DNA from: an uncultured Chloroflexia bacterium
Lineage (GTDB): Bacteria; Chloroflexota; Limnocylindria; Limnocylindrales; CSP1-4
Length of the DNA stretch: 64,000 nucleotides
Direction: 5' to 3'
Assembly: GCA_963766735.1 (NCBI GenBank)
Contig: CAVYBU010000003.1
Coordinates: 128,001-192,000, forward strand
Shown here: positions 8,392 through 40,404 of the stretch, piece by piece
Numbering within the stretch: position 1 is the first letter of the stretch
Layout: every line of letters starts with the position of its first letter
Program-made: the position numbers and the translations under genes
Notes under the pieces: generated by a model
What the model was told of the DNA's origin: nothing
Databases searched by the model: none
The model's input: the letters and a program-made list of their open reading frames with translations, nothing else

Positions 8392-9165
8392 CTACAGCTC
8401 CCGGTGCCGGAACACCGCGATCGCTCCCCCCAGCGCGGCCGCGATCAGGACGAGGGACCCGATCACGGCGGTCGCGAGGCGTGCGCCATCCACCGCCGCA
8501 CCGGTGCCCGCCGCCAGCTCGATCGCCGGGACCGTCAGCCCTGTTGGCAGGAACCGGTCGAGAGCGGGGGAGATGGCCAGCAGTCCGATGCCGACCAGGG
8601 CGACGAACCCGAGACCTGCAGCGGCCATGGTGGAGCCCGTGACCGCCGACGCGAGGAACGTCAGTGATGCCCAGGCGACAAGCGACAGCCATGACAGCGC
8701 GGCCATCGCGAGCCAGCCGCCGATGGGGAGAGGCTCGAACAGGATCGCCGTGTAGACCCAGGCCACGACGCATGCCAGCAGCGTCGCGATCCCGAGCACG
8801 ATTGCGATCGCGAGCAGCTTCGCCGCCAGGAATGCGGGGCGCCCCACCGGCTGGGCGAGCACCATCGCGACCGTCCCCCGGTCCAGCTCTCCCGAGACGC
8901 TGCCCATCGCAAGCGCGATCGCGGCCAGCGCGCCGAGCTGTCCCATGTTCTTCTGGAGCTGCTCCAGGGCCATTGCGGCCGTGGGTTCAGGCAGGATCAT
9001 GGGGAGCTGGTCGCCGAGCGCCAGGTCCAGGATCTCATTCAGGTACCGGGCGGTCAGCGGCGACAGGATGCCGATGACGAGGAACATCACCGCGAGAACG
9101 GGAAGGCGCCGTGTCCGCCACGACTCCATGAGTTCCTTGCGCAGGAGGATGCCAAACCCGCTCAT
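8392..9165 (-). CDS. ABC-2 type exporter permease (YxlG-like)
   Basis: LLRKELMESWRT, multiple TM helices, SGELDRGT...LAQPVGR...FLAAK. Confidence 0.9.
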   Translation of the reverse strand: MSGFGILLRKELMESWRTRRLPVLAVMFLVIGILSPLTARYLNEILDLALGDQLPMILPEPTAAMALEQLQKNMGQLGALAAIALAMGSVSGELDRGTVAMVLAQPVGRPAFLAAKLLAIAIVLGIATLLACVVAWVYTAILFEPLPIGGWLAMAALSWLSLVAWASLTFLASAVTGSTMAAAGLGFVALVGIGLLAISPALDRFLPTGLTVPAIELAAGTGAAVDGARLATAVIGSLVLIAAALGGAIAVFRHREL

Positions 9166-10532
9166 GCGGCCGTCTCCCGCGTGCCGCCGGTCAACCGGAG
9201 GAAGACATCCTCCAGGGTGGGACGGGCCCGTGCAACGGAGATGACGGCCAGGTCCTGCGCCCCGACAAGCTGCAGGAGCTCGCGGGCAGCCACGCTGGGG
9301 TCACCCACGGCCACGGTCAGCAGACCGTGGTCCACGCCCACGGCGGTCACCCAGGTCAGCCCGCGCAGCCGCGCGGCCAGCGCCTCGACCGCCGCCTCCT
9401 GCCCGGGCTCGGCTTCGACCCTCCAGACTGGCAGCGCGTACCTGTCCAGCAGGTCCTCGAGGGGTCCCTCTACGACCAGCCTCCCGTGGTCCAGGATCCC
9501 GACGCGGTCGCAGATGCGCTCCACGTCCGCCAGCACGTGGGTGGAGAAGAGGACGGTGGTCTCGCCGCGCAGGGCGGCGATCAGGCCCAGCACGTCCCGC
9601 CGGCCCTCGGGATCCAGGGCGCTGACGGGCTCGTCCAGGATGACGATGGGCGGGTGGTGGACCATCGCCCCAGCGATCCCGAGCCGCTGGCGCATGCCGC
9701 CCGAGTACGTGGCGGCTCGCCGGTCCGCGGCGCCGACCAGATCCACGCGGGCCAGCGTGTCGTCGATCGCGGCCTCGAGGACCGAGCCCTCCATCCCGTG
9801 CAGGCGCCCGAGAAGGCGGATCTGTTCCCGGCCGGTCATCCAGCCGTAGGCTCGAGGATCCTGCTCGAGGTAGCCCAGGCCGCGGCGCGCGGCGAGCACA
9901 TCCCCCTCGACGACCGTGCCGCCCACGATGGCACGCCCGCCGGTTGGTCGGGTAAGCCCGGCCAGCAGACGCAGGCAGGTGGTCTTGCCGGCGCCATTGG
10001 GTCCCAGGAGGCCGAACACCGACCCGGTCGGGACGGCCATCGACAGCGCGTCGAGCGCGATCACCCCGCCGGGAAAGCGCTTGGTGAGCCCCTCGACCCG
10101 GATCGCGGCGGGCGCGTCGGGCAGCGGCGCCCGCGGTGGCGGAGCGGGCGCGGCATCGACGGGAGCGACCGGGGACGCTTTGGTCCGCGCGACGTCGGCG
10201 GGCCCTCCCGGCGCAGCCACGCCCGCCTGCGGCCCGACCAGGATCGGCGGGTCGTGCGGGCTCCCCCAGCCAGGCACGGCGCCCGGACCCGGGCCACGTG
10301 TCTCTGATGGCCCCTCGTCCCGGCCGACCAGGAAGTACAGGATCGGGCCCAGGAGGTTGACGAACACGATGATGAGCGCCCAGACGCCCTTGTTCCCGCC
10401 GCGCACCCGGCGATCATCCCGCAGCAGGTCCACGACGGCCACGACCGTCAACCCGAGCTGGATCACCAGCAGCGGCACGACGAGCAACAGGATGCCCGGG
10501 TCGAAATTGCCCAGATCCGGGATGTTCACCAT
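9162..10532 (-). CDS. PLDc_N (YxlE-like) membrane domain fused to ABC ATPase
   Basis: N-terminal DLLRDDRRVRGGNKGVWALIIVFVNLLGPILYFLVGR, Pro-rich linker, GPNGAGKTT, YSGGMRQR, LDEP; start ATG 10532 behind GGAGG. Confidence 0.88.
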   Translation of the reverse strand: MVNIPDLGNFDPGILLLVVPLLVIQLGLTVVAVVDLLRDDRRVRGGNKGVWALIIVFVNLLGPILYFLVGRDEGPSETRGPGPGAVPGWGSPHDPPILVGPQAGVAAPGGPADVARTKASPVAPVDAAPAPPPRAPLPDAPAAIRVEGLTKRFPGGVIALDALSMAVPTGSVFGLLGPNGAGKTTCLRLLAGLTRPTGGRAIVGGTVVEGDVLAARRGLGYLEQDPRAYGWMTGREQIRLLGRLHGMEGSVLEAAIDDTLARVDLVGAADRRAATYSGGMRQRLGIAGAMVHHPPIVILDEPVSALDPEGRRDVLGLIAALRGETTVLFSTHVLADVERICDRVGILDHGRLVVEGPLEDLLDRYALPVWRVEAEPGQEAAVEALAARLRGLTWVTAVGVDHGLLTVAVGDPSVAARELLQLVGAQDLAVISVARARPTLEDVFLRLTGGTRETAA

Positions 10533-10643
10533 GCCCTCCAAGGTAGTACCTGGCAGCCGGTCCTGTCACGGCGCGCTGTAGACTCAGCAGTGCCTGCGAC
10601 GCATCACGTCGCGGCAGTCCCGACACGTCCCCGGAGGAGCACC

Positions 10644-11490: not shown

Positions 11491-12537
11491 ATGAGCGGTC
11501 GGGTCCTCGTCGTCGGATCGGTCAACGTGGATCTCGTGGTCCAGGCGGAGCGCCTGCCGCTGCCCGGCGAGACCGTCATGGGCGGCACGTTCAGCCGCTT
11601 CCACGGCGGCAAGGGAGGCAACCTGTCGGTGGCCGCGGCCAGGCTCGGCGTGCCGGTCATGCTGGTCGCCGCGCTCGGCGACGACGCGTTCGGCGACGAG
11701 GCGCGGGCCGCGCTGGCGCGCGAGGGCGTGGGCACAGACGTCCTGGTCACCCTGGAGCGCACCGCCACCGGCGTGGCCCTGATCATCGTGGACGCCAAGG
11801 CCGAGAACCAGATCACCGTGGCGCCGGGTGCGAACGCAGGGCTTACCGCAGCCCACGTCCGGGCGGCCCTCGGGCGGCTCGCGCCGCACCGCGGCGATGT
11901 CGTCATCACGAACCACGAGATCCCGGCCGAGGCGGCCCGTGAGGCGCTCCGGATTGGCCGCGAGGGCGGCGCCTGGACGATCCTCAACCCGGCTCCGGCC
12001 AGCGGCCTGGATCGCTCCGTCATTGGCCTGGCCGACGTGCTGACGCCAAATCGCGGGGAGCTGGCCAGGCTGGCAGCGGACGATGCACGTCGCTCCGGAC
12101 GCGCCGCCACCGGTGCCGAGGAGACGATCAGGACCGCCCGGACCCTGCTCGAGACCACGAGCGAGGGACCCGGCGCCGGCGAGGCCATGCTGGTCAGCCT
12201 TGGCCCGGGCGGGGCGGTGCTCGTCAGGCGCGGCGGGCCGGCGATCGACATCAAGGCGCCCAGGGTGAAGGCGATCGACGCGACCGGGGCTGGCGACGCG
12301 CTGAACGGGGCGCTGGCCGCCGCGCTCGCGGGCGGGCTCAGCCTCGAGGCGGCCGCGCGCCGCGCGGTCGTGGCGGCGAGCCTATCGGTCACCCGCGCCG
12401 GCGCTCGCGAGGGCTACCCGACCCTGGACGAGCTGGCGGCGGCTCTCGGGGAGACGCCGGTGCCTGTAGTGCCGGTGGTGCCGGTGGTGCCGGCCGGGAA
12501 CCCGGCTGACGCGCCCGACGAGGCGCCCCCGGCCTGA
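11491..12537 (+). CDS. rbsK: Ribokinase / PfkB family kinase
   Basis: VVGSVNVDL, GGKGGN, LNPAP, TPNRGE, DATGAGDALNG. Confidence 0.85.
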   Translation: MSGRVLVVGSVNVDLVVQAERLPLPGETVMGGTFSRFHGGKGGNLSVAAARLGVPVMLVAALGDDAFGDEARAALAREGVGTDVLVTLERTATGVALIIVDAKAENQITVAPGANAGLTAAHVRAALGRLAPHRGDVVITNHEIPAEAAREALRIGREGGAWTILNPAPASGLDRSVIGLADVLTPNRGELARLAADDARRSGRAATGAEETIRTARTLLETTSEGPGAGEAMLVSLGPGGAVLVRRGGPAIDIKAPRVKAIDATGAGDALNGALAAALAGGLSLEAAARRAVVAASLSVTRAGAREGYPTLDELAAALGETPVPVVPVVPVVPAGNPADAPDEAPPA

Positions 12538-12582
12538 CCCAGGACCACACCCGGGCCGGACCGCGGGCGGGCCTATCGCGAC

Positions 12583-13653
12583 TCAGCCGACCCGACCCTC
12601 GGCAACCCACGCGCTGCACTGGCGCGCCTCAGGGGTCATTCCCAGGCGCGCGGCGTCGTCGACCCACCACGCCGCCAGCCCGCGCGCCCGTGCCTCCTCT
12701 CCGATGCCATCCCTGCCGGCCAGGAACAGGGCCTTGCTCCAGACCTCGGACCAGGCGGGATCGAGGCCGGCAACGGTGACGGCGATCAGGCCGGTCCTGG
12801 CAGGGGCACCGGTGTTCGGGTCCAGCAGGTGGTGGACCCGCGCGCCGTCCGGTCCCACCCAGTTGCGGACCCGGACGGAGGACGTCGCAACCGCGCCGCG
12901 CTCCATGGCCAGGACGGCCAGCGGCTCGGCGTCCGGTCCCGCGAGCACGGGGTCCTCGACCCCCACTCGCCAGCCGCCTGGCGGGGCCGCACCGGCGCTC
13001 ACGATGTCGCCCCCGGAGTCGAGGAGCAGCCCGGCGCCGGCGGGGAGGCCCTCGATGGCCGCCGCGGCGGCCCACCGCAGCGCGAGGCCCTTGCCGATCC
13101 CCCCGCTGTCCACGGGCGCCGCGGGTGCCTGGACGAGGCTGGCGCCAGGCGTTCCGGCCGGGATGAGGCGGACGACCGCCTCGGTGTCCGCCCGGGCACG
13201 ATCGAGCACCTCGAGCGCCGCACCGCGCTCCCCGATCCGCTCGAGGTCAGTCAGCACCGACGCGTCGAACCGGCCGCCGGTCAGGCGGCGCGCGCGGTCG
13301 ATAGCCGCCAGCATCGTCCGGAGCCGCCACGAGACCGCGATGACGCGACCGGTCCCGGCGAGCCGGTTGAGCGCGGTCAGCTCGCTGTCGTCGCGGAACC
13401 GTGAGAGGGCGTGGTCGACCTGATCGAACTCCGTCCGGACCCGGTCCCAGGCGAGGGTTGGGGCGTCGAGGCCAACGGCTCCGGAGCGCCCCGGGGCATC
13501 GCCGGTGCCGGCGAGCCGAACGTGGAGCGTCAGCCTCGATCCCAGCGCACGCGACGAGAACTCGACGACATGCTCGGGATCGTCGGGTTCGGGATCGGAT
13601 CCCGGTGGCCCCAGCGCCGTGACGTCCTTCCCGGCGCCGGCGGGCCGGCCCAC
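12583..13653 (-). CDS. apbE: FAD:protein FMN transferase ApbE
   Basis: LSRFRDDSELTALN, TGGRFD, DSGGIGKG, DSGGDI, WRVGVEDP, VATSS, HHLLDP, EVWSKALF; no obvious signal peptide; start uncertain. Confidence 0.92.
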   Translation of the reverse strand: MGRPAGAGKDVTALGPPGSDPEPDDPEHVVEFSSRALGSRLTLHVRLAGTGDAPGRSGAVGLDAPTLAWDRVRTEFDQVDHALSRFRDDSELTALNRLAGTGRVIAVSWRLRTMLAAIDRARRLTGGRFDASVLTDLERIGERGAALEVLDRARADTEAVVRLIPAGTPGASLVQAPAAPVDSGGIGKGLALRWAAAAAIEGLPAGAGLLLDSGGDIVSAGAAPPGGWRVGVEDPVLAGPDAEPLAVLAMERGAVATSSVRVRNWVGPDGARVHHLLDPNTGAPARTGLIAVTVAGLDPAWSEVWSKALFLAGRDGIGEEARARGLAAWWVDDAARLGMTPEARQCSAWVAEGRVG

Positions 13654-13658
13654 GGGCG

Positions 13659-14216
13659 TCAGCCGCCCGAGGCGGCGGTGGTGGCCTTCGTGGCCGGTGC
13701 CCTGCTGCTGCTGCCGCCCCCGCTGCCGGCGCTCCGAACGGAGACCGTCGGGAGGCTGATGCGGGTCGGAAGGGCAGCAGCGGATCCCCGGACCTCGGCG
13801 ACGAGCGCGGCCAGCTCGTCCAGCCGGGACTGGTACGAGGCGACGTCCCCACCCACGGCCGCATAGTCGCCGGCGAGCGCTCGAGCCGCATCGTCGGCCT
13901 TGACGACCGCGATTTCGAGCGCGTCGTTGGCGGAGCGGGCGGCCGCCACGGCCTCCAGGTACGGCTGGCGCCGGGCCACGATCGCGGCGTCTGAGTCCGC
14001 CTGCATGACCGAGACGCCCGCGAGGGTGACGGCGTAGATCGCCGCGGACGCGCCGATCAGCATGCCGGCCCGGGTCGGGGTGCTGAGAACCGCCTCTGTC
14101 CGCTGGACGGCCGGCCGCGCAGGCCGATCAGTGGGCCGTGCGGCGCCTTCCCGGAGGTAGCGGGGTCGCGCGGGCGACGGGAACGCGACGGCCGGCAGGA
14201 CGCGCTCAGTCGTCAT
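13659..14216 (-). CDS. Membrane-anchored coiled-coil protein with C-terminal TTAASGG tail (candidate flavinylation substrate)
   Basis: One TM (GMLIGASAAIYAVTLAGVSVM), heptad Ala/Leu helix, Gly/Ser linker, ends PATKATTAASGG; overlaps the upstream stop. Confidence 0.7.
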   Translation of the reverse strand: MTTERVLPAVAFPSPARPRYLREGAARPTDRPARPAVQRTEAVLSTPTRAGMLIGASAAIYAVTLAGVSVMQADSDAAIVARRQPYLEAVAAARSANDALEIAVVKADDAARALAGDYAAVGGDVASYQSRLDELAALVAEVRGSAAALPTRISLPTVSVRSAGSGGGSSSRAPATKATTAASGG

Positions 14217-14703
14217 CGTCGTGCTCGCGCGGCGGGGCGGCGGCCTTGGTCGTGGTCGGGGTGCTCCTTCGCGCCGCCGCGTTGATGGCGGCCTGGCGAG
14301 CGGCGGCCTTGTTCAGGGCGGCAAGGCGCGCCTGCCCTGCCTTGAGCTGCGACTGCAGGCTGTCCAGCTTCACCTTTGCCTTGGCCAGGTCGGCCTGGAG
14401 CGACGTGGCGGTCGAGGCGTCGGCCACCACCGCGCCGTTGGCCGTCACGATGGCGCCCTCGAGCGTCGACAGCTGCCCGGCGACCAAGTCGATCTGACCG
14501 GAGAGGTCCTCGGTGCGGGCGACCTCGGCCTCGATGTCGGCGTCGATGCTGGACATCGAGACCGGCGCCGTATCCAGCGGAGCTGCCTCGGCCCGCCAGG
14601 CCGCGGCAACCTGCACGGTCACGACCGCGACCGCGATAACCGCGCCGGTGGCAGCGAGCACCATGGCTCGGCGCACGATGCGGTTGAGCAATTCTCTCGA
14701 CAT
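14206..14703 (-). CDS. Membrane-anchored coiled-coil protein with EHDDDD tail
   Basis: N-terminal TM, ~90 aa coiled coil (LQADLAKAKVKLDSLQSQLK), ends PREHDDDD; TGATG coupling with the upstream gene, SD GGAGGAG. Confidence 0.75.
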   Translation of the reverse strand: MSRELLNRIVRRAMVLAATGAVIAVAVVTVQVAAAWRAEAAPLDTAPVSMSSIDADIEAEVARTEDLSGQIDLVAGQLSTLEGAIVTANGAVVADASTATSLQADLAKAKVKLDSLQSQLKAGQARLAALNKAAARQAAINAAARRSTPTTTKAAAPPREHDDDD

Positions 14704-15446
14704 CAGGACTCCTCCACCAGGACGGGCACCGGCTGAGGCCGGTCAATTGGTGCCTCGGACGCACCGGTGGCAAGTGCGGGGCGCAGCGGGCGTGACCGGG
14801 CGGTCCACCAGCGGTGCCCAACACCCGCCAGAATCGGCAGGCCGGTGGCGAGATACAGGGGGGTCAGCGCGCCGCTGTCGGTGCCGGCGAGCACCGCATG
14901 CACCCAGGCGAGCAGGAAGGTCACGGCCGCGATGCGGTGCACCTTGAGCCACCACCCGGCGGGGAGGAGGCGGGTCCACTTGGCGGTGGCCGCGGTGAAG
15001 ATCATCGCGTAGAGCGCCACCGTCCCAAGGCCCACGGCGACCGGGCGGAACGTCGAGAAGCCCGGCACGAGCGCCCCCATGATGCCGACGTTGGCGAAGG
15101 GATCGATGGCGAGCAGCACGATGTGGAGGACCAGGAAGGCGCCGGTGAACACCGTGACCATCTCGTGCCACGGGAGGACCTGCCTGGTCTTGCGCCACTC
15201 CGCGGTGTTGCGCGGATGGCTCAGGACCAGGCCGAGACCCACTTCCAGCGCGAGCAGCAGGTACGCCGTGATGCCCAGGGCACGCGCCGCGATCCAGGGC
15301 CGCATCTCCACCGTCCGCGGATCCGCAGCCGGGAGGATCTGGTCCGTCACGCCGATGGCGACGAGCGCGGCAACCGCGCACAGGATGACGAGGGTGACGG
15401 GGCTCAGGCGCACAAAGCCACCCCCGCCCGGTACGGCGGCTGGCAC
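14703..15446 (-). CDS. Ferric reductase-like (MsrQ/heme b) transmembrane protein
   Basis: WIAARALG, LPWHE...LVLHI, WWLKVHR...AWVHAVLAGTD: two His pairs for di-heme binding; true start may be ATG 15478 via a 1-nt indel. Confidence 0.85.
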   Translation of the reverse strand: MPAAVPGGGGFVRLSPVTLVILCAVAALVAIGVTDQILPAADPRTVEMRPWIAARALGITAYLLLALEVGLGLVLSHPRNTAEWRKTRQVLPWHEMVTVFTGAFLVLHIVLLAIDPFANVGIMGALVPGFSTFRPVAVGLGTVALYAMIFTAATAKWTRLLPAGWWLKVHRIAAVTFLLAWVHAVLAGTDSGALTPLYLATGLPILAGVGHRWWTARSRPLRPALATGASEAPIDRPQPVPVLVEES

Positions 15447-15593
15447 GTGATCTCGGATTGCGGCGGACGCTTGCGCATGAGGACTCCAAAAGTGTCAGGT
15501 ACCGCTCCGAGTCCGTGCATCGCCCGAAGGTTTCAGCGGCCACGCCACCAATGGTCCCGGGTGGCCGCGGGTCGTCCGTCCGCGCCGCCCCGG

Positions 15594-16559
15594 TCAGGGG
15601 GCGGCAAGCACCTCCGCCACGCGGTCCACGTTCCAGCGCATGAGACCGGTGTACGTGTCCTGCGGCGCGTCTCCGGTGCTGTCGGTGTAGAGCCCCGAGA
15701 CGACGGTCGCGCCGGTCTCGTCCGCGATGGTCCGGGCCAGGTCCTCGCTGAACTGGGCCTCGGCGAAGATGGCCTTGATGCCCTTCTCCCGCACGACGCG
15801 TACCAGTGCCGCGATCTGCGCCGCGCTGGGGTCCTGGCCGGGCGAATCCACGATCGTGCCGTCGATCGTCAGGCCGTACGCAGTGGCGAAGTACGGGAAT
15901 GCGTCGTGGAACGAGAGCACGGTGCGATCGGACGGGGGAATCGCCTCCATCTTCGACCGCAGCTCCGCGTCCAGGTCCGCAAGCGTTCGCCCGTAGACCG
16001 CAGCCTGGTCTCGATAGGCTGCAGCGTTGGCGGGATCCACCTCGGCCAGCGACTCGCCGATCCGTTGCGCGTACTTGGCCGCATACGCGGCGTTGAGCCA
16101 GAGGTGCGGGTTGACGGCCGCCTGGTCCTGCCCGTCGCCGGCGAGGTAGGTCACCCCGGGCAGGTTCTCGCCCAGGTCCACGACCGGCGCATCCGTGCCG
16201 GCGTCGGTCACGAGGTTCCCGAGCCACCCGTCCAGGCCCAGGCCGTTCACAAACACGATGTCCGCCTCCGACACCCGCCGGACGTCGGAAGGTGTGGGAT
16301 CGAACGTATGCACCTCCCCGCCCTTGGGCACCAGGCTGTCAACGTGCACGCGCTGGCCGCCCACCTGGGCAACGAGATCCGCCAGGATCGTGGTGGTGGT
16401 GACGACCCGGAGGGTTCCGGCAGGGACGTCGCCGGACGGGCTCCCACCGCCGCATGCGGCGGTGGCGAGCGCGATCAGCGCCACGAGCGCGATCAGCCGA
16501 GCGCCGCGCGATCGCGTGTTTCCGTCGAGGCGGGATCGGCGGCCGAGCGGCGGGATCAT
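15594..16559 (-). CDS. Metal (Zn/Mn/Fe) ABC transporter substrate-binding lipoprotein, TroA-like
   Basis: Lipobox TAAC, VVTTTTIL, EVHTFDP, NGLGLD, NPHLW, FHDAFPYF, YTDS. Confidence 0.92.
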   Translation of the reverse strand: MIPPLGRRSRLDGNTRSRGARLIALVALIALATAACGGGSPSGDVPAGTLRVVTTTTILADLVAQVGGQRVHVDSLVPKGGEVHTFDPTPSDVRRVSEADIVFVNGLGLDGWLGNLVTDAGTDAPVVDLGENLPGVTYLAGDGQDQAAVNPHLWLNAAYAAKYAQRIGESLAEVDPANAAAYRDQAAVYGRTLADLDAELRSKMEAIPPSDRTVLSFHDAFPYFATAYGLTIDGTIVDSPGQDPSAAQIAALVRVVREKGIKAIFAEAQFSEDLARTIADETGATVVSGLYTDSTGDAPQDTYTGLMRWNVDRVAEVLAAP

Positions 16560-17020
16560 GCAGGCTCATCCTGTCTGGCCTGGCACGCCGAGCACAGGCC
16601 GAAGACCTCGAGTCGGTGGGCCGTGACGCGGAAGCCGGACCGTTGGCCGACCTCCGCGAGTGCCCGGGTCAGGCCGAAGTCATCGACGTCCAGCGACCGC
16701 CCGCAGCCGGTGCAGATCGCGTGATGGTGGTGCACCGGATCGCATGCCACGTAGGCGTGCTCGCCGTCCGGCAGGTCCACGCGCTCCACCAGCCCCAGGG
16801 ACGCGAACAGGTCCAGCGCGCGGAAGATGGTTGCCCGCCCGATCCTTGGCTGGCGTCGGCCCGCGTCCGCCGCGAGGTCGGCTGCGGTGAAGTACCCGTC
16901 GCGACGCGCGACCAGCTCCGCCACCGTGAGGCGCGGGCCTGTGAGCCGGCGGCCTGCCTGGCCCAGGGCCTTGGCCAGGTGGTTCTCGGCTTGCGCCGCC
17001 GGCTCGCGTGTCCCGGTCAT
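16556..17020 (-). CDS. Fur-family transcriptional regulator (Zur-like)
   Basis: RLTGPR, IGRATIFRAL, HHHHAICTGCG, HRLEVFGLCSAC. Confidence 0.93.
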   Translation of the reverse strand: MTGTREPAAQAENHLAKALGQAGRRLTGPRLTVAELVARRDGYFTAADLAADAGRRQPRIGRATIFRALDLFASLGLVERVDLPDGEHAYVACDPVHHHHAICTGCGRSLDVDDFGLTRALAEVGQRSGFRVTAHRLEVFGLCSACQARQDEPA

Positions 17021-17892
17021 GCGGTCGCCGCCGTTTCATCGAGCGTGTCCGCGATGGCCTCACCGCCCCGCCGCCGCCCCAGCATTCCCCGTGGCCCGAA
17101 CACGAGCGCGACGACGAACATGCCGGTCTGGACGAGGACGATCGTGGCACCGCTGGCGACGTCCAGCCAGTAGGAGAGGTACAGGCCGAGGATGGAGCTT
17201 GCGATCCCGACCAGCGCCGCCAGGACCATCAGGCGCGTGAACCGGACCGTGAGCATCTGGGCCGTCGCCGCTGGCGTGACCAGCATCGCCACGACCAGGA
17301 TGATCCCGACCGCCTGCAGGCTGACGACGATCGTGAGCGCCACGAGGGCCAGGAACAGGTACTCGAGACGGTCGACCTTGATCCCTGATGCGGCGGCACC
17401 CAACGGGTCGAATGTTGCGTACAGCAGCTCCTTCCACAGCAGCGCGACGATCGCGAGCACGAGGAGGCCCAGCACCATCAGCCCGACGAGATCCTCGGCG
17501 CTGATCGCCAGGACGTTGCCCAGCAGGAAGCTGAACAGGTCGGCAACGTAACCGTCGATCGTGCTGAACAGGAACACGCCGAACGCGAACGTGCCCGCGA
17601 ACAGGACTCCGATCGCCGTGTCCTGGCGGATGCCCGCCCGCTTCGTCACGAACCCGATCGCGAGGGCTGTTCCCACGGCTGCGATCGCGGCCCCGATGTA
17701 GAACGGGATCGACAGCATGAAGGCGGCGACCACGCCCGGAAACGCGGCGTGAGCGATGGCGTCCCCGATGAACGCGACCCCGCGCAGGACGACGTAGGTG
17801 CCGACGACAGCGCACACCACCCCGACCATCATCGAAGCGATCAGGGCGCGGACGAAGAACCCGAGCGCCAGCGGTTCCAGGACGAGATCCAT
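17017..17892 (-). CDS. Metal ABC transporter permease (ZnuB/MntB family)
   Basis: GTYVVLRG...GDAIAHAAFPG, DTAIG, LLGNVL, TFDP, AVGIILVVAMLVTPAATA. Confidence 0.94.
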   Translation of the reverse strand: MDLVLEPLALGFFVRALIASMMVGVVCAVVGTYVVLRGVAFIGDAIAHAAFPGVVAAFMLSIPFYIGAAIAAVGTALAIGFVTKRAGIRQDTAIGVLFAGTFAFGVFLFSTIDGYVADLFSFLLGNVLAISAEDLVGLMVLGLLVLAIVALLWKELLYATFDPLGAAASGIKVDRLEYLFLALVALTIVVSLQAVGIILVVAMLVTPAATAQMLTVRFTRLMVLAALVGIASSILGLYLSYWLDVASGATIVLVQTGMFVVALVFGPRGMLGRRRGGEAIADTLDETAATA

Positions 17893-18803
17893 CAGCGCTG
17901 ATCCCCCTGGTCGTGGAAGTGGCGCTCGCCCGGGGCGGCGTCATCGTGATGGTGGGCGTCGTCCAGGACGACGGTGCTGCCCTCCAGCACCAGCAGGTGC
18001 CCGCCGTACGCCCGCTCGAGGACACCGGCGTCCAGGACGAGGTTGGACGGGCCGTAGGCGATGACGGTGCGGTTGATCGCCAGGACCTGCTGGAACCGAT
18101 CGGCGGCGCAGGCGAGGTCGTGCGTGGTTGCCACCACGGTCTTGCCGCGGGCCGCCTGCGCCTCGAGGAGATCCATGAGGAGCTCCTGCGTCGTGGCGTC
18201 GATGCCGGTGACGGGCTCATCGAGCAGGAACAGGTCCGGTTCCGCGGCGAGCGCCCGGGCAAGGAACACCCGCCGGCGCTGTCCGCCTGACAGCCGTCCG
18301 ACCTGGGTCCGGCGGTGCGGATCCATCCGCACCTGCTTCAGCGCCTCGGCGACCGCTCGCCTGTCGTCGGGGCCGGGCCGGCGGACGGACCCCAGGCGCG
18401 GGAAGCGGCCCATCATCACCACATCCTCGACCGTGACCGGGAACGCCCAGTCGACCAGCTCTGCCTGCGGGACGTAGGCGACGCGCCGGGACTCACGACC
18501 GGGGACCGCACCGAGGATCTCGATGCGCCCGGTCCAGGGGCGCGCAAGACCGGCCATGAGCTTGAGCAGCGTGCTCTTGCCGGCACCGTTGGGCCCGACC
18601 ACGGCGAGCAGGCTGCCGGGCTCGACTGCCAGCGTCACGTGCTCCAGGGCCGCGCGCTCACCGTACCCGGCCGTCACGTCGCTCAGCCACACGTCCGCGT
18701 GCGCATGGGCGTGCGGTGCCGACAGCTCGTCCTCGTGCACGTGCGGCGGCCGGGCGCCGCGGCCGGAAGGCGCCAGCGTGGCGGTAGGGCTCTCTGGTTC
18801 CAT
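17892..18803 (-). CDS. Metal ABC transporter ATPase (ZnuC/MntA family) with His-rich termini
   Basis: GPNGAGKST, YVPQ, LSGGQRRR, LDEP; start moved to ATG 18803. Confidence 0.93.
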   Translation of the reverse strand: MEPESPTATLAPSGRGARPPHVHEDELSAPHAHAHADVWLSDVTAGYGERAALEHVTLAVEPGSLLAVVGPNGAGKSTLLKLMAGLARPWTGRIEILGAVPGRESRRVAYVPQAELVDWAFPVTVEDVVMMGRFPRLGSVRRPGPDDRRAVAEALKQVRMDPHRRTQVGRLSGGQRRRVFLARALAAEPDLFLLDEPVTGIDATTQELLMDLLEAQAARGKTVVATTHDLACAADRFQQVLAINRTVIAYGPSNLVLDAGVLERAYGGHLLVLEGSTVVLDDAHHHDDAAPGERHFHDQGDQR

Positions 18804-18820
18804 ATGAGACAGAGTATCAT
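18804..18820. promoter_or_regulatory. Putative Fur/Zur-type operator over a leaderless promoter
   Basis: Imperfect palindrome ATGAGACA-G-AGTATCAT directly abutting the ATPase start codon; contains TACTCT (- strand) 7 nt before the ATG. Confidence 0.5.
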
Positions 18821-18990
18821 CTGGCGCAAGTTCAGCGCCAAGGTCGGCGGCAACGACAGCGGCAGGTACGGAGGCGGGCGGCCGTGGACACGGCACGACG
18901 CTCTTGGCCGATCCCGCCGATCTGCGCCACAATGCCTCGGCATCCCACCCGAGTACGACCCTTCCTCGAACACGAATTCGGAGGCACCCC

Positions 18991-19833
18991 CTGAGCGGCA
19001 AGCAGCCCACCACCCAGACCACGCGCCGGGAGCGTCGCGCCTCGGAGCGCCAGGACCGGTTCAGCAAGGATCGTGACGAGCGCCGCGGCCGGGCCCCCGG
19101 CGGCGAGGGCGCCGGTTCGTCGCTCATCAACACCCGGAACATGACCATCGCCGGCGTGATCGCCGGCGTGCTGATCGTCGTGGTCGTCGGCATCGGCCAG
19201 CTCGGCGGCAGGGTCACCGGGACTCTCCAGGATCCGGCAACGGCCTACCCGGCGGCGCTCCTCGACGGGACTGCGATCGGGAAGGCGGACGCGCCGGTCA
19301 CCATGGAGGTCTACGAGGACTACCAGTGCCCGTACTGCGGGCAGTACTCGCTGGACGTCGAGCCCGTGCTGGTCAGCCAGTACGTGACGCCGGGCACGCT
19401 GCGGATCGTGCACAACGACATCGGGATCCTCGGCCGTGGCGGGCCGGACGACGAGTCGGTCCTCACGGCACGTGGTGCCTTCTGCGCCAACGAGCAGGGC
19501 AAGTACTGGGACTACGCGCACTGGGTGTACGCCAACCAGGACGGCGAGAACGCCGGCGGCTTCCGCAGGGAGCGGTTGACGGCGATTGCCGAGGCCGCGG
19601 GCATCGAGCCGGTGGCCTTCTCGGCCTGCCTCGATGGCGCCGCCGCGACGGCTGCGGTCGACCAGGCGAACGCCGAAGCGACCGCCCTGGGAATCAACTC
19701 CACACCGACGATGTACGTCAACGGCAAGAGGATCGAGGTGTCCCTCGATCCCAGCGCGATCGGGGCGGAGATCGAAGCCGCTGCCGCTGCCGCGGCCGGC
19801 GTGCCTGACGCCTCGGCGAGCACGGTCCCCTGA
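18991..19833 (+). CDS. dsbA: Membrane-anchored DsbA-family thiol-disulfide oxidoreductase
   Basis: GKADAPVT...YEDYQCPYC, GINSTPT cis-Pro loop, one TM; GGAGG precedes an in-frame CTG at 18991 (ORF track start 18904). Confidence 0.88.
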   Translation: MSGKQPTTQTTRRERRASERQDRFSKDRDERRGRAPGGEGAGSSLINTRNMTIAGVIAGVLIVVVVGIGQLGGRVTGTLQDPATAYPAALLDGTAIGKADAPVTMEVYEDYQCPYCGQYSLDVEPVLVSQYVTPGTLRIVHNDIGILGRGGPDDESVLTARGAFCANEQGKYWDYAHWVYANQDGENAGGFRRERLTAIAEAAGIEPVAFSACLDGAAATAAVDQANAEATALGINSTPTMYVNGKRIEVSLDPSAIGAEIEAAAAAAAGVPDASASTVP

Positions 19834-20270
19834 CCGAGGCAACACCGGGGCAGGCTGTCCGCGGCCCGCTCGGCCTGCCCCTGATTGCGGTCGCCCTCTT
19901 CGGGCTCGCGGCCTCGGGCTATCTCGCGCTGGTGAGGCTTGCGGGGGAGACGGCAGTGTGCGGGCCGTCGAAGGGTTGCGAGACCGTCGCGGCCTCTGAG
20001 TACTCGGTGGTGCTCGGGGTGCCGGTCGCGTTCCTGGGCGTCCTGTTCTCCCTCGCCGTTCTTGCCTCTGCCATCGCCTGGTGGCGCCGCGCCGACCGAC
20101 GTGCCCTGCTGCTCGCCTATCTGCTGCTGCTCGTTGGGACGCTGGCCGTCGCCTACCTCACCTACCTCGAGCTGTTCGTCATCCACGCGATCTGCCTGTG
20201 GTGCGTCTCGTACGCGGTGGCGGTCGTGGGCTCGCTCGGCATCGCTGCGCTGGCGTTGCGTCGGAGCTGA
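19830..20270 (+). CDS. Vitamin K epoxide reductase (VKOR) family protein
   Basis: CGPSKGCETVAASEYS, GVPVAFLG, YLELFVIHAICLWC; the first TM lies upstream of the track's start (19932), and the frame is open back to CTG 19830 overlapping the dsbA stop. Confidence 0.9.
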   Translation: MTEATPGQAVRGPLGLPLIAVALFGLAASGYLALVRLAGETAVCGPSKGCETVAASEYSVVLGVPVAFLGVLFSLAVLASAIAWWRRADRRALLLAYLLLLVGTLAVAYLTYLELFVIHAICLWCVSYAVAVVGSLGIAALALRRS

Positions 20271-20435
20271 CCCGGGCCCTACAGGTCCGGGCCGGCCAGG
20301 GTGACCCGCCTGGTCGTTCCGGCCATGCAGTGCGACTGCCTCGCGCCGGTACCAGCGAGCCCGGACCATCGTCGGGGTGCTGGCGGGCCAGGTCCCGGAC
20401 TACGATGCCGGCACCGTTCGCGAACTGGAGTGGCA

Positions 20436-21290
20436 ATGGCGCTCGACGGCCTGCGGTCCGTCGTCAGGCGGATCGCCGAAACGCTCACCGCGACCCCTGC
20501 GATCGTGCCTCCGTGGGCCGACGCTGCATCGCCGGGTGATGCCGCGGCCTCCGCGGCCTCCGCGCCAACGTACGCCGATGGCACCGAGGTCAGGCCAGCC
20601 GGTGAAGACGCGCAATTCCCCTGCCCCACCTGCGCGCGCCCACTCGGCCGGGGCACCGGCCGTTGCGACGGGTGCGGGACCAGGCTGGTCCTGGAGGTCC
20701 CGATGGCGCGGGCATCCATCCTGGCGGGCGCCGGGCTCGTGGTGGGCCTGCTCGTCGGCGGCCTGGGGATGGCGCTGCTCCTGCCGCGGGATAGCTCTCT
20801 GCCGGCCGTGTCTGCGGCGTCCGGTGGACCGGGTTCGACCGGCGCCGCAGCGATCGGCGTGACGGTGCCGGCGTCCGCCGGGGCGGCCCTCCGCGGTACG
20901 ACGGCACTCAATGGCAGGCTTGCAGCCGAGGCCGAGCCACTGGCCCGGGCCGTGGCGGCCAAACCGTTTCACACGTCGGATGTCATCCGGGTTCTGAGGC
21001 GCATGGGCAACGACGTCCGTGCCGCGTCAAGGATGGTCGCCGCGCTGGGGGCGTGGTCGCAGGCCGCCGGGCAGCAGGCCGCACTCTCGGCGTTCTACGC
21101 TGAGCTCGGCGAGGAGATCGAAGGCGCCCTCGCCGCCTCGGTGAACAGCAAGGGCGCGTACAAGGCCGCGGCGAAGAAGGTGATCGCCACGCTGGCCGAT
21201 GTGCCAGGACTCGACCTGGACGCGCGCGTCCTTGCCGACGCCGCCGGGTTGGCGCTGCCGGTCGTCACGATCCCGGAGGCGCTGCGCTGA
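20436..21290 (+). CDS. Hypothetical zinc-ribbon + single-TM protein
   Basis: CPTC...CDGC, then a TM helix and a helical C-terminal domain; GGAG before ATG 20436. Confidence 0.65.
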   Translation: MALDGLRSVVRRIAETLTATPAIVPPWADAASPGDAAASAASAPTYADGTEVRPAGEDAQFPCPTCARPLGRGTGRCDGCGTRLVLEVPMARASILAGAGLVVGLLVGGLGMALLLPRDSSLPAVSAASGGPGSTGAAAIGVTVPASAGAALRGTTALNGRLAAEAEPLARAVAAKPFHTSDVIRVLRRMGNDVRAASRMVAALGAWSQAAGQQAALSAFYAELGEEIEGALAASVNSKGAYKAAAKKVIATLADVPGLDLDARVLADAAGLALPVVTIPEALR

Positions 21291-39515: not shown

Positions 39516-39675
39516 CACCCGCGGCCGGCTCGGCACACGACGGGCCGGAGGTACCCCGTCCGGGCGTGACCCCGCCACCTCCGCGGCGGCCATCCGGCCC
39601 TGACGGGCGTCAGCCCCGTCCCGGAGCATGGCGGTGGACGGGCAGCTCCGACCCGCCGCCAGGGAGGCCGACGCA

Positions 39676-40179
39676 ATGAAGGTGCTCGTGACCGCAGCTT
39701 CGCGGCACGGCGCCACCACGGAGGTGGCTGCGTCCATCGGTTCCGTCCTGGAGGCCGCCGGACTCGAGGTGCACGTCCTGCGGCCCGCCGATGTCTCGGG
39801 GATGGATGGCTTCGACGCCGCCGTCATCGGCAGCGCGGTCTATGTCGGCCGGTGGCTGGAGCCCGCGCGGGACCTGGTGGAGCGGGAGAAGACGGCCCTG
39901 TGCCGGATCCCGGTCTGGCTGTTCTCCAGCGGGCCGATCGGGGACCCGCCCAAGCCCGCGGATGAGCCAGTCGACGCCGCGCCCCTCGCGGAGCTGGTGG
40001 CGGCCCGCGGGCATCGGACCTTCGCCGGGCAGGTGGATCGCAAGCGCCTCGGCTTCGGGGAGAAGGCGATCATGGCGGCGGTTCGGGCGCCGGAGGGAGA
40101 CTTCCGGTCGTGGCCCGAGATCGAGGCCTGGGCACGCGAGATCGCCGCGGCGCTCCTGGGGGTCGGGGCGGCTGTCTGA
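39676..40179 (+). CDS. Flavodoxin-domain (HemG-like) protein
   Basis: ASRHGATTEVA, IGSAVYVGRW, WLFSSGP, GDFRSWPEI; SD GGGAGG. Confidence 0.9.
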   Translation: MKVLVTAASRHGATTEVAASIGSVLEAAGLEVHVLRPADVSGMDGFDAAVIGSAVYVGRWLEPARDLVEREKTALCRIPVWLFSSGPIGDPPKPADEPVDAAPLAELVAARGHRTFAGQVDRKRLGFGEKAIMAAVRAPEGDFRSWPEIEAWAREIAAALLGVGAAV

Positions 40180-40210
40180 GACAGGCGCAGACGCGACCGC
40201 GTCCGCGGCC

Positions 40211-40250
40211 GGAGGAGCGCGGAGGAGCGCGGAGGAGCGCGGAGAAGCGC
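40211..40250 (+). repeat. Intergenic 10-bp tandem repeat
   Basis: GGAGGAGCGC x3 followed by GGAGAAGCGC. Confidence 0.9.
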
Positions 40251-40404
40251 GGACGCGCCGACCCGTCGACGCTCAACCTGTGGCCGGGTGGCCCGCCGAG
40301 ACGGGCCCAACGGCCGTTCGGCGGACGGCGGGTGGTGCGCAAGATGGACCCGCGTCCAACCTGTCGCCGCGCCTAGACGGCGATCGATCGAGGGTCCAGC
40401 AACC

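Follow-up and report, generated by a model that had tools for sequence, protein, structure and literature searches.

A conserved C-terminal flavinylation-type motif on a predicted membrane-anchored stalk protein encoded beside apbE in uncultured Chloroflexota

Flavinylation by ApbE, the Mg-dependent FAD:protein FMN transferase that attaches flavin mononucleotide (FMN) drawn from flavin adenine dinucleotide (FAD) to a Ser or Thr of its target, is a main bacterial route for electrons beyond the cytoplasm. The 64,000-nucleotide stretch of DNA analysed here, referred to throughout as the window (uncultured Chloroflexia bacterium, contig CAVYBU010000003.1), carries an apbE gene as the last of four genes, and the question that this locus raises is which protein the enzyme would modify. 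The gene directly preceding apbE encodes a small membrane-anchored protein, CC2, which on the evidence of its sequence family is a candidate for a new class of ApbE substrate that lacks a domain, a 'flavin-tag' found in nature. The CC2 family probably represents a type of flavin-carrying electron-transfer protein that has not been described. That CC2 is flavinylated by the adjacent ApbE at S183 we regard as an evenly balanced proposition; the details of electron flow set out below are held with far less confidence.

The module lies on the minus strand as four translationally coupled open reading frames (ORFs), in the order FRD, CC1, CC2 and ApbE, and comprises the following features.

14703–15446, minus strand: FRD, 247 amino acids (aa) as the longest ORF, a six-transmembrane Ferric_reduct/MsrQ-like protein with a two-heme His pattern

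14206–14703, minus strand: CC1, 165 aa, a helical protein predicted to be single-pass (N-in), with the C-terminus EHDDDD

14209–14226, minus strand: acidic C-terminal tail of CC1 (EHDDDD), the final codons of which overlap the CC2 start codon

13659–14216, minus strand: CC2, 185 aa, a protein predicted to be single-pass (N-in), with the C-terminus ...GSGGGSSSRAPATKATTAASGG

14007–14063, minus strand: transmembrane segment of CC2, residues 52–70 (Kyte–Doolittle hydropathy of 1.88 over a 19-residue window)

13668–13679, minus strand: predicted flavinylation site T180-A-A-S183 of CC2, assigned by motif conservation, with S183 as the proposed FMN acceptor

12583–13653, minus strand: ApbE-family FAD:protein FMN transferase, 356 aa, PF02424, with no signal peptide or transmembrane segment

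FRD and CC1 share a single nucleotide (nt) at their junction (TGATG), CC1 and CC2 overlap by 11 nt, and 5 nt separate CC2 from ApbE; upstream, a 147-nt gap lies between FRD and the gene for a substrate-binding protein (SBP). A preliminary description of this DNA, made from the letters alone, had reported four tightly coupled genes, and all four ORFs were found on the minus strand with these tight junctions; the C-termini that it quoted for CC1 and CC2 match the window translations exactly, and its end coordinate of 15478, 32 nt past the longest FRD ORF, is a harmless discrepancy. The window has a G+C content of ~71%, and relatives of its genes come from metagenome-assembled genomes (MAGs) labelled Candidatus Limnocylindrales, Chloroflexota or Chloroflexia; the source bacterium is of a soil or freshwater type. 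Codon-position GC values of 0.74/0.64/0.88, together with hundreds of homologues, identify CC2 as a real gene. The same description had noted the lack of a canonical substrate, and Pfam scans of 10 and 57 ORFs agree: none of the 67 window ORFs (those shorter than ~70–90 aa left out) encodes, at the thresholds applied, FMN_bind (PF04205), NqrB/RnfD, NosR, DUF2271 or DUF3570.

The evidence that singles out CC2 lies at its extreme C-terminus. Tails of the CC2 family follow the consensus [H/N/Q]-A-T-T-G-A-S-G, which includes the canonical [S/T]GA[S/T] ApbE site. Across an alignment of 56 homologues (A1, mean column identity 51%), S183, which lies three residues from the C-terminus, does not vary at all, and A182 and G184 reach at least 90% conservation; the Gly/Ser-rich linker preceding the motif differs widely in both length and sequence. 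Alignment A2, which covers the distant subfamily, has a mean column identity of 30%, and T136, A138, S139 and G140 are among its few columns conserved to at least 90%, within the tail pattern ...P-x-T-H-A-T-T-G-A-S-G. Counted as [S/T]-x-[A/G]-S within the last ≤11 residues in three sets of homologues with 382 members, the motif is present in 370: 118/120 of the near set (the misses are one frameshifted read and one AGAS), 137/147 of the representatives (eight frameshifted or truncated sequences, the near-miss P0260 and the end-truncated P0265) and 115/115 of the distant set, where it reads TGAS in 100. Among the 370 motif bearers TGAS occurs in 199, and TGAS and SGAS together in 248; the residues that follow the motif Ser differ from member to member (GG, GAP, GVP, GKP, GR and GH). 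The loose motif has a base rate of 1.64 per 1000 aa in 54 window proteins and falls within the last 11 residues in only one of these, CC2. Among the orthologues of FRD, CC1, CC2 and ApbE, moreover, an [ST]x[AG][ST] motif is conserved nowhere but at residues 180–183 of CC2 (43/43). A TGAS in the cytoplasmic C-terminal tail of the window FRD (residues 227–230) and a TAAT at its residue 151 are unconserved in 47 orthologues and were set aside as chance occurrences.

The ApbE motif is given in a review as D-x-x-[S/T]-G-A-[S/T], with seven residues sufficing and terminal tags being flavinylated best; replacing Asp with Ala had a minor effect (in one tested substrate), and the Gly-to-Ala and Ala-to-Val changes lowered flavinylation, the former without abolishing it (PMC12052999). 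The window CC2 retains the acceptor Ser, the preceding Ala and the Ser/Thr at position −3 (T180-A-A-S183), with Ala at position −2, where the nearest relatives have Lys (TKAS). Gly occupies −2 in 73/118 of the near set, 93/137 of the representatives and 103/115 of the distant set, and TAAS, the window form, is found in 7/118 of the near set. At position −6, that of the canonical Asp, the window CC2 has Lys, the near set T/S/K/R and the distant sets H/N/Q, with Asp in 4/370. Because most members carry TGAS or SGAS, the TAAS of the window and the TKAS of its relatives are best read as derived forms of the [S/T]GA[S/T] site, and T-G-A-S-G would be the ancestral motif. The preliminary description had taken T-A-A-S for a variant of a flavinylation-type motif and had proposed conservation of a C-terminal T[G/A]AS-type motif as a test; conservation proved stronger than expected, with S183 invariant, and the variant reading gains from a family in which the canonical forms predominate.

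The enzyme encoded immediately downstream of CC2 matches PF02424 over residues 70–323 with 135 bits (cut-off 25.6), and ApbE/Ftp chains in the PDB match it at 6e-15 to 4e-8; it is not an Escherichia coli-type equivalog (NCBIfam PRK10461, 49.5 versus a cut-off of 498). In 31 aligned orthologues T257-S258-S259, H274-H275, D278-P279 and D182 are invariant or nearly so. S258 (30/31) and H274 (31/31) are spaced by 16 residues, as are the conserved Ser and His in the review, where the active-site residues of Vibrio cholerae ApbE are Ser241, His257 and Asp285 (PMC12052999). At the position of the conserved Asp, or beside it, pairwise alignments place E303 (30/31), followed by S/T306 (31/31), which is offset by one from the usual downstream Thr, a mapping that rests on spacing and on alignments to the Treponema pallidum and Salmonella chains, not the V. 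cholerae chain. Judged by these residues, the window ApbE is probably an active but divergent enzyme.

Where the enzyme and its proposed acceptor would meet is the central difficulty of this locus. An N-terminal signal peptide or lipobox is usual, though not required, in the ApbE family. By hydropathy, the window ApbE has neither, nor a transmembrane segment: the maximum over 19 residues is 1.14, and no window reaches 1.5. In most of 45 orthologous loci the stretch between the CC2 stop codon and the ApbE core is 23–62 residues long and hydrophilic, and no hydrophobic stretch was found upstream of the core in 41/45 loci (maximum 12-residue window <1.4), the four exceptions being one late-starting match, one Ala/Pro-rich stretch and two frameshifted read-throughs. 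Conserved recoding between CC2 and ApbE was considered and rejected: the frame relation of the two genes varies among loci (0, +1, +2), and so no conserved read-through or frameshift tethers ApbE to the CC2 anchor. The SBP encoded upstream, unlike ApbE, carries a normal lipoprotein-type N-terminus.

The stalk proteins, for their part, appear to face outwards. The flank N-terminal to the membrane helix is more positive than the C-terminal flank in 114/117, 127/135 and 112/115 members of the three CC2 sets (353/367 overall) and in 47/47 CC1 sequences, and the whole N-tail of the window CC2 subfamily has a median net charge of +6; the C-termini of both CC2 and CC1 are thus predicted, from charge bias, to lie outside the cell. 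In 11 representatives the motif is bracketed by a Cys pair (for example, ...C-T-T-A-S-G-K-P-C), a pattern that suggests an extracytoplasmic disulfide loop. Since ApbE has no hydrophobic segment and the charge bias is N-in, the enzyme appears cytoplasmic and the acceptor site extracytoplasmic. The preliminary description had named tails lying beyond the reach of ApbE as counting against its proposal, and the present results touch on this directly, with tails predicted outside and no ApbE export signal in the window or in the 45 orthologous loci. Either flavinylation precedes export of the tail, or ApbE reaches the outside in some way that its sequence does not reveal, or the predicted topology is incorrect. 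A twin arginine, as RRP[VIL]HL, follows an N-tail of ~9 residues and immediately precedes a helix of moderate hydrophobicity in 109/115 members of the distant subfamily, the N-terminus of which looks like a twin-arginine translocation (Tat) signal; by the same motif count it occurs near the helix in 11/118 members of the window subfamily, and not in the window CC2. Arginine beside a transmembrane helix is also expected from the ordinary positive-inside rule.

The CC2 family is large and has no domain assignment. A word-index search recovered at least 231 homologues, and a profile built from alignment A1, run against 1.84 billion representatives, matched 286 representative clusters at E ≤ 1e-3, of which 190 also passed E ≤ 1e-10. 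Clustered at 50% identity, the family therefore comprises 286 clusters or more, and every one of them comes from uncultured bacteria. The window-type subfamily (~180–200 aa) has an Arg-rich N-tail of 45–50 residues with an invariant MTERxLP start, and the more numerous distant subfamily (~139–141 aa) has a 9-residue N-tail (MTE-x-RRP-x-HL). CC2 matches no Pfam or NCBIfam family above cut-off, nor any at E ≤ 0.01; of 10 distant members searched against Pfam, eight have no match and two have only sub-threshold coiled-coil matches, and neither CC2 nor these 10 belongs to FMN_bind, NqrB/RnfD, DUF2271, DUF3570, Flavodoxin_4 or FMN_red. Neighbours of CC2 in the ESM Atlas are only 'hypothetical protein' clusters from Chloroflexota, and a tblastn search of plasmids with a distant member as query gave no match.

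Running through most of CC2 in an AlphaFold2 model based on alignment A1 is one uninterrupted helix (residues 46–148), with a predicted local distance difference test (pLDDT) score >90 over most of its length (blocks 61–150). Flanking it, residues 1–45 and 149–185 are predicted to be disordered, the latter forming a 37-residue tail. The preliminary description had placed the tail beyond a long rod, and the model agrees, the tail following a long predicted helix and being itself predicted disordered. By simple geometry, a straight helix of the ~78 residues after the transmembrane segment would be ~12 nm long, and the tail could reach about as far. The term 'coiled coil' for CC1 and CC2 rests on these AlphaFold2 helices and on sub-threshold Pfam and NCBIfam coiled-coil matches.

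At the opposite end of CC2 (14193–14216, residues 1–8), the cytoplasmic N-terminus is an invariant T-E-R-x-L-P (T3, E4, R5, L7 and P8). This conservation reaches past the 11-nt overlap with CC1 and could represent a binding peptide or a constraint from translational coupling; the distant subfamily likewise begins with MTE or MTD. Apparent CC1–CC2–ApbE 'fusion' proteins (P0035, P0057, P0131, P0143, P0147 and P0198; loci L004, L018 and L043) were rejected as frameshift artefacts of assembly, because their junctions are read out of frame and they have no tail motif. L003 and L004 come from a single MAG, in which the module is present on two contigs, intact on one of them and frameshifted on the other. 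A search for longer proteins found no fused forms of the distant subfamily, which is weak evidence.

CC1 resembles CC2 in build. It has one hydrophobic 19-residue window (Kyte–Doolittle 2.28), and its AlphaFold2 model (mean pLDDT 75) comprises a transmembrane helix (residues 3–39), a short linker, two further helices (50–91 and 96–147) and a disordered end. Invariant residues of the core helix in an alignment of 41 sequences (A3) include Q119, L120, R126, L127, L130, N131, Q137 and N141, and CC1 has no Pfam or NCBIfam match above cut-off. Its end consists of a variable low-complexity linker followed by an acidic/His tail. The His/Asp composition to which the preliminary description had drawn attention recurs in relatives, with at least three D/E in the last 10 residues of 43/47 sequences and His in the last 12 of 34/47. 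The last one or two Asp codons are partly constrained by the overlap with the CC2 start (ATGAC.GA); in L007 and L017, loci without this overlap, the tail is acidic all the same. Three runs of CC1 + CC2 complex prediction, made without controls, scored 0.35, 0.01 and 0.00 against a mark of 0.32 and carry no weight either way.

FRD exceeds the PF01794 cut-off only marginally (29.1 bits versus 28). We nevertheless accept it as a two-heme MsrQ-like membrane protein because at least 95% of 47 sequences keep its heme-ligand-type His pairs, H94/H108 and H170/H183 (47/47 for H94 and for H108); H77 is likewise conserved in 47/47 and H211 in at least 95%. No NAD- or FAD-binding domain was found on FRD by Pfam. 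An extracytoplasmic loop at about residues 115–131 is highly conserved. Most orthologues start 11 codons later than the longest ORF, at a position equivalent to the GTG at 15413 in the window. The C-terminal peptide of FRD (14706–14717) is acidic and conserved (..V-E-E-S, L-E-D-L or M-E-E-Q; 46 loci) after a variable Pro/Ala-rich stretch.

Gene order was followed in species-representative genomes for the near (window-type) CC2 subfamily, yielding 46 loci, all from Chloroflexota-type MAGs except one labelled delta proteobacterium. FRD and CC1 precede CC2 in 46/46 loci, and ApbE follows in 45/46, the exception being a contig end. Downstream of the module, a PfkB kinase and a short-chain dehydrogenase/reductase (SDR) are conserved as strongly as the module genes themselves, and because such unrelated flanking genes are equally conserved, the synteny reflects collinearity of one clade (Limnocylindrales, Chloroflexota) and is not independent evidence. 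Linkage to apbE and the ferric-reductase-like gene, which the preliminary description had proposed to examine, is therefore complete (45/45 loci that are long enough) without amounting to independent support.

Lying upstream of the module, on the same strand, are the genes of a metal ATP-binding cassette (ABC) importer and a regulator, assigned by Pfam and NCBIfam.

17892–19217, minus strand: ABC ATPase

17017–17892, minus strand: ABC-3 permease

16556–17020, minus strand: Fur-family regulator

15594–16559, minus strand: ZnuA-family lipoprotein SBP

The SBP falls below the NCBIfam cut-offs for MntC (230.8 versus 400) and AztC (218.3 versus 350). These genes are directly upstream of FRD in 43/46 loci and are missing in L003/L004 and in L010; an obligatory link of the module to the metal ABC transporter and Fur-family regulator was rejected, since these absences show that the four-gene module is separable from the transporter. 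Divergent from the ABC operon are genes for a DsbA-like thioredoxin (PF13462/PF01323; 18904–19833, plus strand) and a VKOR-family protein (PF07884; 19932–20270, plus strand). In L004, which has no ABC genes, the DsbA-like gene abuts FRD, and for this reason the disulfide-forming pair can be regarded as a constant neighbour of the module. The longest ORF of the ABC ATPase has ~190 residues ahead of its ABC_tran domain and overlaps the DsbA-like ORF on the other strand (18904–19217); the true start, to judge from this arrangement, probably lies further downstream.

No sigma-70-like promoter was found upstream of the module, terminator-like sites are no commoner than in shuffled sequence, and no riboswitch or other RNA element was matched in Rfam at E ≤ 0.1 within 12000–20500, the sole match at E ≤ 1 in that interval (mir-26, E 0.11) being dismissed as chance. 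Spanning the SBP stop codon, before FRD, is a 27-nt imperfect inverted repeat (15565–15624; 70% complementary, 6-nt loop), which has no T-run terminator and may be a transcript-processing or attenuation hairpin. Elsewhere in the window, and unrelated to the module, an ABC ATPase with an N-terminal PLDc_N membrane domain and a C-terminal DrrA-like domain (9162–10541, minus strand) adjoins an ABC-2 permease (8392–9165, minus strand). A Flavodoxin_5 protein (39628–40179, plus strand) is encoded ~25 kb from apbE, followed by a 905-aa fusion of dihydropyrimidine-dehydrogenase-like, pyridine nucleotide-disulfide oxidoreductase and 4Fe-4S domains (40288–43005, plus strand); the flavoproteins at 39628–43005 entered the motif tally only within the window aggregate.

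How might these four proteins work together? In the mechanism that we propose, the co-transcribed ApbE would move FMN from FAD onto S183 in the [S/T]-x-A-S-G motif of CC2, a protein that would consist of a transmembrane helix, an extracytoplasmic helical stalk of ~80 residues and a disordered tail of ~35 residues. As CC2-family proteins lack a flavin-binding fold, a flexible tether would be all that holds the FMN. The tethered flavin could take electrons from the outer heme of the MsrQ-like FRD by docking transiently on its outer face, where the conserved loop at residues ~115–131 is a candidate site, the CC1/CC2 helical assembly being an alternative candidate, and could then hand them to an envelope or extracellular acceptor. 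CC1, of similar build, would be the partner of CC2, with an acidic/His tail that may bind cations. The sole hint that the module might reduce metals for uptake is the frequent, non-obligatory neighbourhood of the Fur-family regulator and the metal ABC importer. Joined into a single picture, CC2 would be a fold-less covalent flavoprotein with one FMN on a leash of ~35 residues atop a membrane-anchored stalk of ~12 nm, a tethered shuttle from the outer heme to acceptors up to ~25 nm away in the monoderm Chloroflexota envelope; its FMN would be loaded in the cytoplasm by the signal-less ApbE before export, and the acidic/His tail of CC1 would hold or receive the metal being reduced. That all of these parts hold together we consider improbable.

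Several known systems resemble parts of this module. Closest in gene content are the MsrQ-like flavinylation clusters of Meheust et al. (2021, eLife), in which a PF01794 di-heme membrane protein is encoded near apbE (in the window, two genes upstream of it and with a marginal PF01794 match) and the proposed electron path crosses the membrane via two hemes to a covalent flavin, with some clusters linked to metal uptake (PMC8238504). Those clusters are mostly actinobacterial and typically include an FMN_bind protein and often an NAD-binding domain on the cytochrome (PMC8238504), whereas the window module has a Chloroflexota (Limnocylindrales) host, its cytochrome has no NAD-binding domain, its ApbE has no signal peptide, and instead of an FMN_bind protein it encodes two helical single-pass proteins. 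That survey admitted a cluster only if ApbE, FMN_bind, DUF2271 or DUF3570 in it bore a signal peptide or lipidation site (PMC8238504), a rule under which its pipeline would have skipped the window cluster. In the FMN_red proteins of Lactococcus (Huang et al. 2024, mSystems), flavinylation takes place on an unstructured C-terminal extension and is Ser-dependent by experiment, as would be the case for the acceptor Ser of CC2; there, however, the tail returns the flavin to the fold's own flavin site, whereas CC2 is a transmembrane helix, a long helix and a tail with no such fold (PMC11334425). The synthetic flavin-tag of Tong et al. (2021, via PMC12052999) shares with CC2 the principle that a terminal peptide of ~7 residues suffices, with no flavin-binding domain, but it was engineered with the full D-x-x-[S/T]-G-A-[S/T], whereas the tail of CC2 occurs in nature, carries H/N/Q or T/K/S where the tag has Asp, and is so far only predicted to be modified. 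Extracytosolic FMN_bind flavoproteins, too, set covalent flavins away from the membrane, some of them on a helical scaffold, but hold them in FMN_bind domains and are served by a secreted or lipidated ApbE/FmnB; each CC2 chain would have a single flavin site, carried by its disordered tail, and the ApbE encoded beside it has no export signal.

Speaking for flavinylation of CC2 are, above all, the conservation of its tail motif and the fit of that motif to the published ApbE site, and further the precedent of the Lactococcus extensions, the intact Ser/His core of ApbE, the position of CC2 directly upstream and the lack of any other candidate substrate in the window. A number of observations weigh against it. 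The window motif is TAAS and that of the nearest relatives TKAS, with the canonical Gly replaced and the Asp at −6 missing; ApbE has Glu at its conserved-Asp position, with the downstream Ser/Thr offset by one; the synteny comes from a single clade in which PfkB and SDR are equally conserved; CC2 has no recognisable flavin-binding pocket to hold a tethered FMN near the heme; and a signal-less ApbE is in conflict with a CC2 tail predicted outside. Overall, the interpretation in the preliminary description is supported in part: it is strengthened by the conservation of the tail motif, is speculative as to the heterodimer, metal binding and electron transfer away from the membrane, and faces a genuine problem in topology. 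The conflict would disappear if the signal-less ApbE flavinylated the new CC2 tail in the cytoplasm and the C-terminal part were then exported, in the wider family possibly by Tat, to give an extracytoplasmic flavin; with FMN loaded in the cytoplasm, there would be no need to export ApbE and FAD. Consistent with such an order of events are the missing ApbE export signal in the window, with none evident in the 45 orthologous loci, the lack of a flavin or FAD exporter in the operon, the Tat-like twin arginine of the distant subfamily, and the existence of cytosolic ApbEs, although those known serve cytosolic substrates (PMC12052999). The twin arginine is scarce in the window subfamily and missing from the window CC2, and where it occurs the positive-inside rule would predict it as well. 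Our literature search, in the text available to it, found no case of ApbE-type flavinylation before export, and we know of no precedent for it; we consider loading before export unlikely.

Reversing the topology would also bring enzyme and tail together. CC2 and CC1 would then be C-in, and the tail FMN would be the cytoplasmic electron-entry cofactor of the di-heme FRD, replacing a cytosolic flavin domain or reductase. Electrons do enter from a flavin on the cytosolic side in NOX, FRE, STEAP and MsrQ with Fre, the window ApbE is cytoplasmic by sequence, and FRD has no NAD/FAD-binding domain of its own; yet the N-in/C-out charge bias of nearly all CC2-family members and every CC1 examined, the median charge of +6 on the N-tail and the Cys pairs around the motif in 11 representatives argue to the contrary, and make this arrangement highly improbable. 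A further explanation removes redox function from the pair altogether: CC1 and CC2 would serve the heme protein in a structural or assembly role, or form an envelope pair with no relation to it, the tail would be a site of other modification or processing or a docking peptide, and ApbE would serve a substrate elsewhere or act only as an Ftp-type FAD hydrolase. An FAD pyrophosphatase activity is reported for Ftp (PMC4767422), the analysis covered only 64 kb of the genome, and the synteny within a single clade, the missing motif Asp, the often-replaced Gly and the Glu in ApbE are all compatible with such a reading. Set against it is the commonest tail variant, TGAS, which is the exact ApbE recognition core; the varying residues after the Ser argue against a C-terminal Gly-Gly type signal, and ordinary secreted FMN_bind proteins would likewise be beyond the reach of an ApbE with no signal peptide. 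We think this non-redox explanation doubtful. Flavinylation of the CC2 tail thus remains the reading that we prefer, at the even weight stated at the outset.

To our knowledge, all natural ApbE substrates described so far hold their flavin in a folded domain. The logic of the module is familiar, whereas a fold-less flavin-tag-on-stalk substrate and a signal-less ApbE beside it are undescribed in the literature searched, which, with subscription journals outside its coverage, held no description of the CC2 family or of a domain-less natural ApbE substrate. Published surveys were filtered on signal peptides and known domains, to which clusters such as this one are invisible, and genomes with orphan apbE genes imply substrates yet to be identified (PMC8238504). 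If CC2 is flavinylated as proposed, the family would supply a new substrate class for the remaining orphan-apbE cases, and the pairing of a cytoplasmic-looking ApbE with an outside-looking site would bear on whether flavinylation can precede export. Nature would then be using the minimal flavin-tag principle, with a bare C-terminal peptide on a helical stalk as the acceptor, and the module would offer a tractable model of a redox cofactor that is tethered rather than domain-bound.

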